A stretch of 64,000 bases of DNA from an uncultured Candidatus Saccharibacteria bacterium (GCA_964434285.1 CAYSUJ010000001.1:240564-304563); one strand, 5' to 3'; numbered from the stretch's first letter, positions 8,400 through 38,509 are shown. A program made the numbers and translations. Notes: generated from the sequence alone by a model not told the origin.

Positions 8400-8510
8400 A
8401 TCGTAGCATCTTCAATCGAACAATTGGCAATAATCCTTAGGAAAGTCAATTTCGCGCTAGCCGTCATATCTATCGAGGGCATGAATTACTCTAACCCCCT
8501 CCTAATACAT

Positions 8511-9248
8511 ATGACACGCATCACACTACAGCATTATCAGTTCGCACTCGTCGGCATTCTGCTCGCGCTCGCGGCGCTTCCCTTCGGCGTTCATGCCGAT
8601 AGCGATAAGAATAAAAGCTCCTCAAAAGGACTCGGTGGCACGGGAGTTGAAATAAACATCGGCTCGAATGGTGGCGTCTTGGTTCGCGGCGCGAAAGTCA
8701 CCGGCGTTTCGTCCTCGACGATTAACGCGAACACCTCCATCGGCGCATCCATATTGAGTTGGGTGGTTAAAACCGATGGCTCTACGGAATTTACGACGCA
8801 GAATGGCGTAGCGACAGGCCTTTCCGGCATCGCCGTGGGCGATACGATTTCCTTCCGCGGCGCGCTTGATCAGGCGGTTGCCGGACTCACCGTGAACGCA
8901 AAGATCGTGAAGGACTGGAGTCAGGTGGAGACCAAGCGCACGCTCGAAGGCGTTGTGAGCTCGATAAACGCGACACTCGGCTCGTTCACCGTCATCAAGA
9001 ATGATTCGACGACAACCGTGCAAACATCCTCTTCAACACAGTGGAAAGGCGACGCAGATTCCTTCTCTGATCTCATCGTGAATGCGGCAGTGAAGATCAA
9101 AGGCTTCTTCAATGCATCGACCACGGTCATGACGGCGCAGTCCGTTGACGTCGATGATGATAACGATGACAACGAAAGTTGGAGCAGTAATGATAGACAC
9201 GAGTGGCGCGACTGGATCCGCTCAAAGGTCTGGCTGAGCCTCCGCTAA
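8511..9248 (+). CDS. Secreted repeat protein (signal peptide, Ser/Thr/Val-rich beta-repeat)
   Basis: MTRITLQHYQFALVGILLALAALPFGVHA signal peptide. Repeated V-x-G-x-V-x-S/T-I pattern. Acidic C-terminus. Confidence 0.55.
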   Translation: MTRITLQHYQFALVGILLALAALPFGVHADSDKNKSSSKGLGGTGVEINIGSNGGVLVRGAKVTGVSSSTINANTSIGASILSWVVKTDGSTEFTTQNGVATGLSGIAVGDTISFRGALDQAVAGLTVNAKIVKDWSQVETKRTLEGVVSSINATLGSFTVIKNDSTTTVQTSSSTQWKGDADSFSDLIVNAAVKIKGFFNASTTVMTAQSVDVDDDNDDNESWSSNDRHEWRDWIRSKVWLSLR

Positions 9249-9261
9249 ATGCACAGGCACT

Positions 9262-9294
9262 CGGTGCGGCAAGCTCCATTGGAGCTTGCCGCAC
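9262..9294 (+). terminator. Perfect 15-bp hairpin GGTGCGGCAAGCTCC-att-GGAGCTTGCCGCACC 3' of the 8511..9248 gene
   Basis: Read directly. No U-tract follows. Confidence 0.4.
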
Positions 9295-9355
9295 CGCCTT
9301 GTCCCCCATGAGCCCCACACATACAATAGATAAAGGCACTCCTCGTAAGAGGAGC

Positions 9356-35358: not shown

Positions 35359-36720
35359 ATGTTTTTTGGTATTGATTTAATCCAAGCAATTCAAGTGATT
35401 GGCTACCCCGGCATTTTTGCGATCATCCTGGCAGAGAGCGGCCTCTTTTTCGCCATCTATCTCCCTGGCGGCTCCCTTCTCTTCACCGCAGGCCTTCTCG
35501 CCTCGCAAGACATTCTCAACATCTGGCTTCTTCTCTCCATCGTCATCGTCGCAGCCGCGCTCGGCGACACGATCGGCTATTGGTTTGGCGCGTGGGTCGG
35601 CCCGGCACTCTGGCGTCGCGAAGATTCCCGCTTCCTCAAGCGAAAACACCTCGAACAAACACGCGAATTCTTCGATGAACACGGTGCGAAGACCATCCTC
35701 CTCGCACGCTTCGTTCCAATCGTACGCACCTTCGCACCGATTCTCGCGGGCGTGGGCGAGATGCGCTATCACACCTTCCTTTTTTACAACCTCCTCGGTG
35801 CACTTATTTGGGGCGGCGGCTTCACACTCGCTGGCTATTTCCTCGGCACCTCAATTCCGGATGCGAGTAAATATCTTGAGGTGATTGTTCTCGGCATTGT
35901 CTTCGTCACCATCCTTCCCTTGGTGCATCATGTGTGGCAAGCGCGCAGGCGTGAAGCGAAAAAAAACGACACCGGAGCATCAAAACCGCACGCATTAATT
36001 TTCGACCTCGACGACACGCTCGCGGAGAGCTTCCAAGCACCGAGCGAGCAAATTCTTGAGAAAGTGTTCACTCTCGCGGAGCGCATGCCGGTTGCCATTA
36101 TGTCGGGAGCCACATTCTCACGCCTCGAACGCGACATCATGCAACGTCTTCCCGCACACCACATGGCACAACTCTCCGTCTTTTCTGACAACGGCGCACG
36201 CGCTGACGTATGGAAAAACGGCACATGGGAAACCGCCTACCACTTCCCCCTTGAAAGCGCCGAGCGAGAACAAATAAAGAACATCGTCTCTGAAGCAGTC
36301 GCGGAAACCGGCGTGTTTAATGCTGAAGAGCCGCAGTATCGCATCATCGACCGCGGCACCTCCGTCTCTTTTGCTGCGCTCGAAGACGGGGCGACGAAAA
36401 CCAAGAAAAGCACATGGGATCCCGATCTTTCCAAGCGCTCAAAGCTTGCAGAAGCTCTCCGCGCGAAACTCCCCGGCTATGAAGTGCTGATCGCCGGCAA
36501 AACCACCATCGACATCGTCCGCAAAGGCATCAGCAAAGCCTACGGCGTTGAATGGCTCGCAGAGCACTTAGGTATCCCAGCAAAAGACATGCTTTTCGTC
36601 GGCGACGCCTTTTACGAAGGCGGGAACGACGCCGCTGTTATCCCCACCGGCATTAAAACCCACCACACGAGCGGCCCCAAAGAAACGGAAGAGCTCATCG
36701 ACAACCTCCTCCGCCCCTAA
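35359..36720 (+). CDS. Fusion of DedA/SNARE-associated membrane domain and HAD-IIB hydrolase
   Basis: N-terminal DedA-like GIFAIILAESGLFFAIYLPGGSLLFTAG with 4-5 TM. C-terminal LIFDLDDTLAES and FVGDAFYEGGNDAAV. The C-terminal half is paralogous to 11362..12084. Confidence 0.75.
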   Translation: MFFGIDLIQAIQVIGYPGIFAIILAESGLFFAIYLPGGSLLFTAGLLASQDILNIWLLLSIVIVAAALGDTIGYWFGAWVGPALWRREDSRFLKRKHLEQTREFFDEHGAKTILLARFVPIVRTFAPILAGVGEMRYHTFLFYNLLGALIWGGGFTLAGYFLGTSIPDASKYLEVIVLGIVFVTILPLVHHVWQARRREAKKNDTGASKPHALIFDLDDTLAESFQAPSEQILEKVFTLAERMPVAIMSGATFSRLERDIMQRLPAHHMAQLSVFSDNGARADVWKNGTWETAYHFPLESAEREQIKNIVSEAVAETGVFNAEEPQYRIIDRGTSVSFAALEDGATKTKKSTWDPDLSKRSKLAEALRAKLPGYEVLIAGKTTIDIVRKGISKAYGVEWLAEHLGIPAKDMLFVGDAFYEGGNDAAVIPTGIKTHHTSGPKETEELIDNLLRP

Positions 36721-36776
36721 CCCAAGGCACCCATCCCCAAGGTCCCCAAGGCGACGCCTTGTTCCAAACAAGCCAA

Positions 36777-37448
36777 TCAGAGAGCCATATTTTTATAGTA
36801 CTCTGCAGCATCTTCCAGGACCTCTGCCAGTTCCACATTTGTTTCGAACAAAGTGCGTGTTTCCGGATCAAGTACTAAGCTTTCAGCCCTCGGTGCACCA
36901 AAATAGTATCCGGCGCTGCTATATTCATAATTCAAAAGACGCTTCTTGAGTTGTGCAATATCTGCCCTGAGAATCCCCCGCTTCCAATGTGGTTCGAACA
37001 ATTCTGCAGGATTAAGATGGAGATAATTCGGTATGTGCATGAAGTGCGCTTCACTCGTGATTCTTCGTGCACGAAATGGTTTGAGAAATAGATTTCCCGT
37101 TCGTTCGTTGCGTTTATTGAAATACATCGTATACGCAGTACCAACTTTTTGCATATAAGAAGAAATGCCTCCTTCTACTATCTCCTGCATCACTATATGA
37201 AAATGATTTGGCATCAGACAATACGCAGCAATAGATACGAGAGGATCGCCGCGTATATGTCTGAAGATCTCATCGTGCGAAAGGAAGTTAACGTCATTTT
37301 GATGTATTGCTTTCGTACTGTTACTCAGATACAAAGCCTGAAGAAAACGCCGATAGTCATGAGGCGAACAGAAAACACGCCTCTTGTCGACGCCACGATT
37401 GTAACAATGATACCATTCACCGACTCCAAAGGACTCTCGCAACGCCAT
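36777..37448 (-). mobile_element. Y1 (HUH) transposase of the IS200/IS605 TnpA / RAYT family
   Basis: YHCYNRGVDKRRVF and AYCLMPNHFHIVMQ match the Transposase_17 His-hydrophobic-His and catalytic Tyr-region signatures. Flanked by palindromes sharing CAAGGCGACGCCTTGTTC. Confidence 0.8.
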
Positions 37449-37461
37449 TGCCTCTACTATA

Positions 37462-37502
37462 CCACCCCACAGAACAAGGCGACGCCTTGTTCTGTGGGGT
37501 GG
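37462..37502. repeat. Perfect 20-bp hairpin CCACCCCACAGAACAAGGCG-a-CGCCTTGTTCTGTGGGGTGG, 13 nt upstream of the RAYT start
   Basis: Read directly. The same CAAGGCGACGCCTTGTTC core is at 36747-36764, after three CCCAAGG tandem repeats (36721-36752). Confidence 0.6.
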
Positions 37503-37560
37503 CTTAAAATAAGAATATTATTGGTACACGACTTTGAGCTTGGGTGCACGAGCGTGCTGG

Positions 37561-38509
37561 TTACGGCAGACTTTCGCACACGCTACCATCCTTATTGCCA
37601 TCGAGACGATGAACATCGTTCCCAACGCCGCCGCACTGTTCAAACACTGACTGCGCCTCGGCTTGTGTCTTGAAATGCGAACAGTTGTAGGTGTTCGTTG
37701 AACATGTGTACCCGCCACCTGCGGGAGCTGGCTCTTCTTCTGACTCAGGCGAAAGTTCGGGTTCGGGTTTGGGTTCCGTCTTAGGCTCCACTTTCGGTTC
37801 CTCCTTTTTAACTTCCAGAGGAGTCGCCGGCGGCGCAGCGGAAGCAGGCGTTGTCGAGGCCCCGAGCACCGCAGAAACTGCGGGCACGGGGGGGCAAGAT
37901 CACTTTTTTTACTTCTGCTTTCACGGTCGGTTTCGGGCACGCGTCTGGCGCCCAGAGCCCCTTTCCTCCTTCTCGAGCCGCCGCCTCTGCGGCCTTGAAT
38001 GTATCCTGGTATTTATAATCGTCGTCGTACGTATATTCGTACGCATAGCCATCTTCAATCATCTTTTGGTTGAGATGCACTCCGTTCTCCGCAAAAAGAT
38101 ACACGAGGAGGCGTTTGTATTTGTCTCGCTCACCCTGGCTTGAATCCGTCTCCACCGCCACGCGCTTGCCGATTATTTTCTTGAGGTACGCTGTTGCCTC
38201 AGCGCCAAAACACTCGACACCTGCACGCGCATCGTTTGTTTCCGGCGTATCGATCCCAATCAAGCGCAGCGTCTCGTTTTTCTCCCTCATCTTGATCGTG
38301 ACAGTGTCACCGTCAATGACCTTTATGACCTCGTACAGCTCCCGCGTGGACGATGCCTGAGCGCTCTGCTCGTCCCCATCCTCAAACATCTCAAAACCGC
38401 TCGCGGCATCCGCTATCTGCGAATCATTTTTACTCGGCACAAAAAACGCCGCTCCGAGCCCAAGTCCTATCCCGATCGCCCCCACGAGAACGAGAAGCAA
38501 CTGTGGCAT
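37561..38509 (-). pseudogene. Secreted thermonuclease (SNase-like) with C-terminal Excalibur Ca-binding domain, split by a +1 frameshift at a C7 tract
   Basis: SNase motifs VIDGDTV...LRLIGIDTPE in frame A (37808..38509). Excalibur motif CSHFKTQAEAQSVFEQCGG...LDGNKDGSVCESLP in frame B (37561..37887). The frames overlap at the homopolymer 37888-37894, and removing one C joins them. Confidence 0.6.

Follow-up and report, generated by a model that had tools for sequence, protein, structure and literature searches.

What keeps RAYT-like Y1 genes (a RAYT is a REP-associated tyrosine transposase, and a REP is a repetitive extragenic palindrome) in genomes, where they are the textbook 'domesticated' transposases, is an open question (PMC5581495, PMC6006769). 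One such gene lies in a 64-kb stretch of DNA, referred to below as the window, from an uncultured Candidatus Saccharibacteria bacterium of the Patescibacteria (GCA_964434285.1, CAYSUJ010000001.1:240564-304563). Here, an 840-bp block on the minus strand (36721-37560) consists of one Y1/HUH gene and two flanking copies of its own palindrome, with no tnpB, and the question is whether it is a mobile element, a repeat-spreading system or a resident host gene. The evidence moderately favours a self-contained class-2 (RAYT/TIRYT-like) HUH cassette with two cognate palindromes, inherited mostly vertically and subject to rare precise insertion or excision.

The cassette and its occupied and empty sites

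The stop codon of a DedA-HAD fusion gene (36718-36720) and that of the SNase-Excalibur gene convergent with it (37561-37563) delimit the block, whose boundaries are resolved no better than ~4 nt. Neither neighbour is disrupted, as the initial annotation had stated. Its description of a single-copy gene without tnpB, carrying its own palindromes on both sides, also held, and no further copy of the cassette was found in the window.

The same block is absent from related genomes. Contigs found by a search with the neighbouring DedA-HAD protein include the closest relatives of the window genome, L147 (92% identity) and L148/L149 (~88%), and the more distant L151/L152 (74%) and L153/L154 (72%). In all of these, DedA-HAD and SNase abut without a Y1 gene and their stop codons overlap by 2 nt, the shared TA lying within CTAA in L147 (7359-7362), TTAG in L148 (7395-7398), CTAG in L151 (4401-4404) and CTAA in L153 (4356-4359). 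This tight sharing of stop codons is kept in cassette-free hosts that differ by up to ~30% in protein sequence. The occupied sites, found in the window and in L001, L129, L130 and L131, share one SNase/DedA-HAD junction. Insertion falls at the YTAR formed by the overlapping stop codons, and TA is present on both sides of the occupied site, where both genes need their stops; this may reflect a target, a duplication or a coding constraint. The empty allele of the window would read ...CGCCCCTAA directly joined to CGGCAGACTTTCGC...

The host relationships leave two histories for this distribution. Three proteins give the topology ((window, L147), L148), with L001 outside, and the Excalibur C-terminus splits the hosts into group A (window, L147, L148, L151, L153) and group B (L001, L129, L130, L131). 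All members of group B are occupied, and in group A only the window is, nested among hosts with empty sites. Either the window gained the cassette at the exact junction used in group B, or an ancestral cassette underwent at least three precise losses, and the choice between the two is ambiguous. Both histories require the block to have entered or left as one discrete unit, precise almost to the nucleotide. Import of the whole locus by homologous recombination was considered and is unlikely, since the 3' end of the SNase gene is native (L147-like) up to its stop codon.

Long residence at this junction is indicated by the four closest relatives of the Y1 gene (L001, L129, L130, L131), which share 61-72% identity with it and all lie between SNase-Excalibur and the convergent DedA-HAD fusion. 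With a dN of 0.16-0.32 and saturated dS across the five orthologues, the Y1 gene is, judged from these coding sequences, under strong purifying selection. All 10 of the 10 flanking palindromes in the five syntenic genomes keep CAAGGCG-W-CGCCTTG exactly, and the adjacent spacers cannot be aligned by eye.

Presence/absence polymorphism with clean empty sites, a tnpA-only layout of ~0.8 kb with hairpins at both ends, and GC and GC3 (GC at third codon positions) well below those of the host are what an ordinary IS200-type insertion sequence (IS) would show, that is, a selfish and active element present in multiple copies, with one hairpin at its left end and one at its right. Such an element is nevertheless improbable here. 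The combination of canonical IS200/IS605 ends and multiple identical copies, which the initial annotation had named as the mark of an ordinary IS, was not found, and an ordinary IS was rejected on this ground. The cassette is single-copy, and identical family proteins recur at one site: P0081 (11 contigs) and P0093 (10 contigs), each from different samples, occur in one gene neighbourhood only. Where a single contig carries two family genes (L069/L109, L054, L095), these are divergent and have different palindromes. Same-site orthologues at 61-75% identity with saturated dS also speak for long vertical residence rather than for active spread. Carriage by phages was rejected, as no relative was found in 2.9 million viral contigs, and plasmid relatives reach only 23-33% identity.

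The low GC of the gene does not argue for recent arrival either. The Y1 gene has more AT than the DNA around it (GC 0.435 vs 0.55; GC3 0.41 vs 0.60-0.66), but all 57 of the 57 scorable family genes are likewise AT-richer than their hosts, and their GC3 tracks host GC (r = 0.64). Low GC is therefore a family trait, and the argument from it for recent horizontal arrival was rejected. The initial annotation had called the gene a domesticated RAYT rather than an IS; it was right that this is not a multicopy IS, but an immobile gene is too simple a picture, because close relatives have seamless empty sites.

Near the ends of the block, a weak 18-nt inverted repeat (36727-36744 and 37530-37547; 78% complementary, with the outer 7 nt, GCACCCA, exact) sits 6 and 13 nt inside the two boundaries. 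It is a weak candidate for a terminal inverted repeat (TIR), and no counterpart was seen in L001.

The Y1 protein and its relatives

The gene (36777-37448, minus strand) encodes 223 aa, and its product contains YHCYNRG and AYCLMPNHFHIVMQ. The HUH motif is H82-F-H84, the catalytic tyrosine is Y142 within NYLHLNP, and the tail carries Y174..S177-S178. The open reading frame, these motifs and a match to the Pfam model Y1_Tnp (PF01797, 26.5 bits vs a cut-off of 23) bear out the Y1 HUH hallmarks first noted for the product. The catalytic Tyr region that had been proposed was partly misplaced: the tyrosine exists, as Y142, but the AYTMYFN stretch is not the catalytic site. All 60 aligned family members match Y1_Tnp, and among these H82, H84, Y142, H144, N146 and S178 are invariant, with S177 kept in at least 90%. 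The protein is therefore a member of the HUH Y1 superfamily by its metal-binding HUH motif, its one catalytic Tyr and its Y1_Tnp fold.

Structure comparison points to the REP-associated enzymes. The AlphaFold (AF2) model is confident (pLDDT 94), and its best fold match in the PDB is 4er8_A, TnpAREP of Escherichia coli with a REP hairpin bound (Foldseek, E 1.2e-5). The ISDra2, IS608 and IS200 transposases rank after TnpAREP, and the Foldseek probability is 1.0 for 4er8, 2xma, 2vjv and 2a6m alike. Y142 is aligned to Y115, the catalytic tyrosine of E. coli TnpAREP, and sequence similarity to that protein is marginal (E 0.13). The sole other profile match, to REP_Tyr_transpos (NCBIfam NF047646), scores 38.7 bits, below its cut-off of 80.

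The tyrosine motif settles the class at the level of sequence. Class 2 enzymes carry Y---NP and class 1 enzymes (TnpAIS200) carry Y---Q (PMC6006769 Table 1), and the protein, with NYLHLNPAE in a family whose consensus is YIHLNP, is a class-2, RAYT-like TnpAY1 by this motif. An ordinary IS200-type element is disfavoured here as well, since its Y--NQ (PMC6006769 Table 1) and length of ~150 aa differ from the Y-LHLNP and 223 aa found.

Within class 2, comparison of motifs with PMC6006769 Table 1 assigns the best fit to subclass 2.1, a subclass identical with Bertels group 1 and with the TIRYT described by Di Nocera et al. 2013 (PMC6006769, PMC3733652). The TIRYT proteins and their TIRtron elements (PMC3733652, PMC6006769, PMC5581495) have the HuH motif NH[YF]H (here NHFH), Y[IV]HLNP (here YLHLNP, and Y(I/L/V)HLNP in the family) and the tail SS (here Y-x-Y-S-S). 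Their length is ~220-240 aa (here ~225 aa), and they share with the present family low copy number and inverted or self-complementary flanking repeats that are few or absent elsewhere. The RAYT identity first proposed thus stood in part, as a class-2 Y1 enzyme with TnpAREP as its best fold; the REP population that should accompany it is missing from the window and 81 related loci, and the motifs are those of subclass 2.1.

The family departs from TIRYT in three features of its proteins and hosts. Subclass 2.1 proteins have been reported with DnaA_C-like tails (PMC6006769), whereas a distal C-terminal helix-turn-helix (HTH) domain of the Bac_DnaA_C, HTH_23 or HTH_28-like type was detected in 0 of the 60 members. 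The W motif position holds F followed by V or L, and not W[EQ] or FQ. The hosts here are Patescibacteria, a group (also known as CPR, candidate phyla radiation) that is not among the lineages in the taxonomic distributions of the surveys, in which Parcubacteria go unmentioned (PMC6006769 Table 1).

Relatives are numerous. A collection clustered at 90% identity holds 3765 at E <= 1e-3, most of ~223 aa, and the named ones are Patescibacteria 'transposases'; in a 50%-identity library, 206 clusters match at E <= 1e-30. These hundreds of Patescibacteria cassettes apparently form a large family that has so far gone undescribed.

Flanking palindromes in the window and across the family

The upstream palindrome (37462-37502) reads CCACCCCACAGAACAAGGCG-a-CGCCTTGTTCTGTGGGGTGG and spans 41 nt, with two arms of 20 nt around one central base. 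A spacer of 13 nt separates it from the ATG, which puts it at about -54 to -14, and its arms are 100% complementary, so that the perfect 20-bp hairpin first described at this position was confirmed. Its single-stranded form has a folding energy of -25 kcal/mol (z = -11.5). The family core AAGGCG-W-CGCCTT occupies 37476-37488. The downstream copy, CAAGGCGACGCCTTGTTC (36747-36764), is a partial palindrome, CAAGGCG-a-CGCCTTG followed by TTC, that lies 12 nt after the Y1 stop and is an exact 18-nt direct repeat of the upstream centre. These two are the only sites in the 64 kb with up to 3 mismatches, a count reached in 0 of 100 shuffles, and also the only two occurrences of the core AGGYGNCRCCT. 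The upstream palindrome has at its outer edge the motif TAAGCCAC (37499-37506, minus strand), apparent in the junction sequences, and WAAGCCAY is found at the same fixed distance outside the palindrome in all five orthologous loci. Searches for RNA families at the locus returned sub-threshold miRNA noise only. Inside the DedA-HAD coding sequence, GGCGACGCCTT (36601-36611, within the VGDAFYEG motif) matches 10 of the 11 bases of the core AGGCGACGCCT. It lies 120 nt from the insertion site, is kept in L148 and nearly so in L147, and is probably a coding coincidence.

Three CCCAAGG units (36721-36751; CCTTGGG(G) on the gene strand) accompany the downstream copy. The initial annotation had placed them just past the stop, with the palindrome following; both are present, but in gene orientation the palindrome comes first and the units lie beyond it, against the DedA-HAD stop. 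On the gene strand they read CGCCTTGGGG-A-CCTTGGGG-ATGGGTG-CCTTGGG. In TRF, TCCCCAAGG appears as an exact tandem pair, with the third unit overlapping the palindrome arm; the units repeat in tandem a part of the downstream palindrome's outer arm, together with a G-run. The word itself is not enriched in the window (6 found vs 5.1 expected), and what is unusual is the clustering of three units within 31 nt. The units, missing from all four orthologous loci (L001, L129, L130, L131), are thus an embellishment specific to this lineage. Read on the minus strand, they amount to a canonical G-quadruplex motif, GGGGACCTTGGGGATGGGTGCCTTGGG (36721-36747), one of only three in the 64 kb on both strands. 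The DedA-side junction might also hold a remnant duplicate of the SNase 3' end (GGATGGG...TGCCTTGGG vs GGATGGG...TGCCTTAG); this is suggestive, and tandem copies of the palindrome arm explain it equally well.

The same architecture recurs across the family. Flanks were analysed by script in 80 metagenomic loci whose proteins share 44-54% identity, and the scoring of 81 distinct family genes placed a flanking palindrome upstream of 59 and downstream of 53. A large majority of the genes are bracketed by near-perfect odd palindromes. Their centres lie a median of 32 nt before the ATG and 15 nt after the stop, the downstream one often overlapping the stop codon. The centre-aligned consensus is RAGGYG-W-CRCCTY, with conservation in the upstream set of 94% at -5A, 94% at -4G, 88% at -3G and 81% at -1G, and in the downstream set of 88%, 88%, 81% and 77% at the same positions. 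Pairs covary at +/-2 (C:G or T:A) and +/-6 (A:T or G:C), and the distal stem varies from locus to locus yet is the same on both flanks of one gene. A preference for convergent-gene junctions was considered and dropped, as the orientation of neighbours is ~50:50 across loci.

These sites are symmetric. In 40 flank pairs, the central base is the same in 21 and complementary in 19, as for random orientation, and similarity between flanks beyond the stem is at chance level in the 40 loci. The family position profile is dyad-symmetric and holds no GTAG-type or other one-sided tag. The symmetric dyad, the random central base and the lack of a match beyond the stem therefore indicate that there is no GTAG-like tag and no strand asymmetry, in contrast to REPs and to IS200/IS605 ends (PMC8266576). 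A guide-like 5' tag was suggested by extra bases that the close clade shares on the 5' side only (TTCTATAC in L130, TAGAA in L001), and was rejected because such similarity is at chance level in the 40 loci. Perfect symmetric palindromes also differ from the imperfect asymmetric ends of an ordinary IS200-type element, whose subterminal hairpins go with guide tetranucleotides and a defined tetra- or pentanucleotide target. The TIR motif shared by many TIRtrons, GGGGWSAS, differs from the near-perfect odd palindromes with RAGGYG-W-CRCCTY as well; the window has GGGGTGGT, GGGGACCT and GGGGATGG, each with one to two or more mismatches to it.

The repeat search bears on the classical REPIN-RAYT system, or REPtron, in which a domesticated RAYT would be flanked by hairpins drawn from a genome-wide REP family that it spreads. 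REPtrons comprise subclasses 2.2, 2.4, 2.5, 2.7 and 2.8 and Bertels groups 2 and 3; their palindromes recur as tens to hundreds of dispersed extragenic copies, and a 5' GT[AG]G at the hairpin foot makes each site strand-specific. A single-copy class-2 Y1 gene with its own flanking palindromes, TnpAREP as the best fold match, palindrome doublets and triplets at L078, L079, L095 and L101, and rare orphan copies are all features that such a system would have. The REP sample, made up of the window and 81 related loci (558 kb), nevertheless contained only 5 orphan locus-specific palindromes away from a Y1 gene, compared with more than 100 gene-flanking copies, and no other copy occurs in the 64 kb of the window. 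A scan with GAACAAGGCGTCGCCTTG of a genome-contig collection in which the source genome is not included gave 47 single matches in unrelated phyla and 0 in Patescibacteria. Together with the lack of a GTAG tag and of strand asymmetry, a REP_Tyr_transpos score of less than half its cut-off, and motifs of a subclass, 2.1, that has no reported REPs (PMC6006769), the scarcity of copies in the window and related loci makes a REPtron quite unlikely, and the proposal of a REP-associated repeat system was not upheld. The cassette is mostly vertically inherited and, in the loci sampled, does not seed REP-like repeats.

Palindrome doublets or triplets upstream of the gene are also seen in L064, L066, L092 and L100, and some of these doublets and triplets form larger REPIN-like hairpins. 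In addition, a DnaA-box-like sequence, TTATCCACA (<=1 mismatch), is ~5-fold enriched within ~100 nt of family genes (1.06 vs 0.21 per kb). It is seen at L077, L097, L113, L120, L121 and others, often at the outer edge of the palindrome, with three exact boxes at L120, and it is not present in the window. The enrichment is intriguing in view of the DnaA_C-like tails reported for subclass 2.1 proteins.

Two further observations concern the surroundings of the cassette. The coding sequence of the SNase-Excalibur gene (37561-38509, minus strand) is split over two frames, with the switch around 37865-37893: residues 1-218 of the L147 orthologue align with frame -1, and its residues 209-318 with frame -2. 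A run of seven G adjoins the switch, which reflects either a genuine frameshift or an error of assembly in the homopolymer. A perfect palindrome unrelated to those of the cassette, CGGTGCGGCAAGCTCCA-a-TGGAGCTTGCCGCACCG (9262-9296; 17-bp stem), lies 14 nt after the open reading frame at 8424-9248 (plus strand) and is probably a terminator.

Promoter, proposed mechanism and relation to known systems

The position of the upstream palindrome suggests a second function for it. A putative extended -10 promoter, TGgTATAGT (37456-37464, minus strand), lies 7 nt before the ATG of the Y1 gene. The case for it rests on a family-wide statistic: a TAnnnT hexamer ending 5-9 nt (mostly 6-7) before the ATG is found in 60 of the 79 family genes, compared with 4.9% of control ATGs, and TGn precedes the hexamer in 40 family genes. 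A generic sigma-70 scan did not call the Y1 promoter, because there is no -35 match. An extended -10 box so near the ATG implies a leaderless mRNA, and the Y1 transcript is accordingly predicted to start from this promoter without a leader. The palindrome, centred at a median of -32 in the family, lies over the -35 region of the putative promoter. At L077, L097 and L107, a TTGACT -35 box and the -10 box flank the proximal palindrome copy.

A promoter with a palindrome at its -35 position, and symmetric dyad sites of the type common among operators, would suit a fully domesticated host enzyme, for instance one that processes hairpins or cruciforms in replication or repair. The cassette would then be immobile, the palindromes would serve as operator and terminator, and the empty sites would reflect ancestral absence combined with one horizontal acquisition. 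Strong purifying selection, and the existence of ~200 family clusters at 50% identity in Patescibacteria, whose small genomes hold little junk, point the same way. An operator and terminator role, however, leaves unexplained why the same sequence stands on both flanks and why the distal stems covary, and this reading does not account for how two host groups came to have a precise insertion at one and the same junction. The invariant catalytic residues further suggest that nicking activity has been retained. Full domestication is thus an improbable explanation, on a par with an ordinary IS200-type element.

For the favoured reading of a rarely mobile cassette, a mechanism can be outlined by analogy with the TnpA of IS608 and ISDra2 and with TnpAREP. 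In single-stranded DNA or upon cruciform extrusion, the palindromes would fold into hairpins, and the enzyme would bind their conserved apical part. One strand would then be cut and rejoined nearby through Y142 and a metal held by H82/H84, and action on both flanks would lead to rare precise excision and reinsertion of the cassette. Since the upstream palindrome overlaps the -35 region of the leaderless promoter, protein bound there would repress its own gene and keep activity low. The upstream palindrome therefore probably doubles as an operator of this promoter. The two hairpins might also insulate the cassette from neighbouring transcription.

Several points weigh against this reading. The gain/loss history is ambiguous, and the junctions are too coarse to tell a TA or YTAR duplication, which would be atypical for Y1 transposition. 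The repeat scans cover the window and related loci, and a modest number of dispersed copies may exist elsewhere in the source genome. The binding and cleavage ascribed to the Y1 protein are carried over from known enzymes, in which a guide or GTAG tetranucleotide directs cleavage; the symmetric dyads have no equivalent of it, and a dimer may instead read the palindrome as double-stranded DNA. The downstream copy has a short (7-bp) stem whose folding is not significantly better than that of shuffles. Lastly, the -10 boxes of the close clade are weaker than those of the family at large.

A bolder proposal, tentative and clearly less likely than the cassette reading, is that these genes form a subclass of Y1 elements, widespread in Patescibacteria, with perfectly symmetric palindromes that share a conserved core, in which one copy is kept, the enzyme represses itself through the palindrome in its leaderless promoter, and the cassette is seamlessly inserted and excised in a site-specific manner, here at the overlapping stop codons of a convergent gene pair. 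Such site specificity would explain why distant hosts have the cassette at a junction that close ones have empty.

Comparison with characterized systems indicates that nothing in the locus falls outside the known Y1 framework. With the IS200, IS608 and ISDra2 elements (subclass 1.1), the cassette shares the HUH/Y1 fold, a hairpin-flanked tnpA in a unit of ~0.8 kb, an upstream hairpin beside the promoter, and seamless empty sites of the kind that peel-and-paste excision would give. It differs from them in lacking Y---Q, in a protein that is 70 aa longer, in not being multicopy, in its long vertical residence at one site, and in symmetric perfect palindromes that show no recognisable guide or cleavage tetranucleotides. 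The REPtron built on E. coli TnpAREP (RayT) and its REP/BIME repeats (4er8; PMC3479197, PMC8266576) resembles it in the best fold match, in Y---NP, in a bracketed single-copy gene and, presumably, in a chemistry of hairpin-specific single-strand cleavage and rejoining. Unlike that system, the cassette has no hundreds of REPs, no 5' GTAG, and no bulge or other strand-specific feature, and its protein bears a helical extension of 75 aa at the C-terminus. What most sets the cassette apart from known systems is the symmetric, tag-less palindrome, which may be recognised as a hairpin or as a duplex.

If the cassette is merely a quiet TIRtron, the value of this finding lies mainly in cataloguing, as it extends the TnpAY1 classification to Patescibacteria. 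The family nonetheless offers a stripped-down case of a 'domesticated' transposase, with one gene, two palindromes, no REP cloud, very small hosts, and natural occupied and empty alleles. It makes testable whether such an enzyme acts on its own flanks, whether symmetric palindromes can direct cleavage without a guide tetranucleotide, and whether the palindrome works as an operator. Should the proposal of a widespread Patescibacteria subclass prove true, these genes would represent a site-specific, copy-number-one Y1 lifestyle that stands between an IS and a domesticated RAYT.

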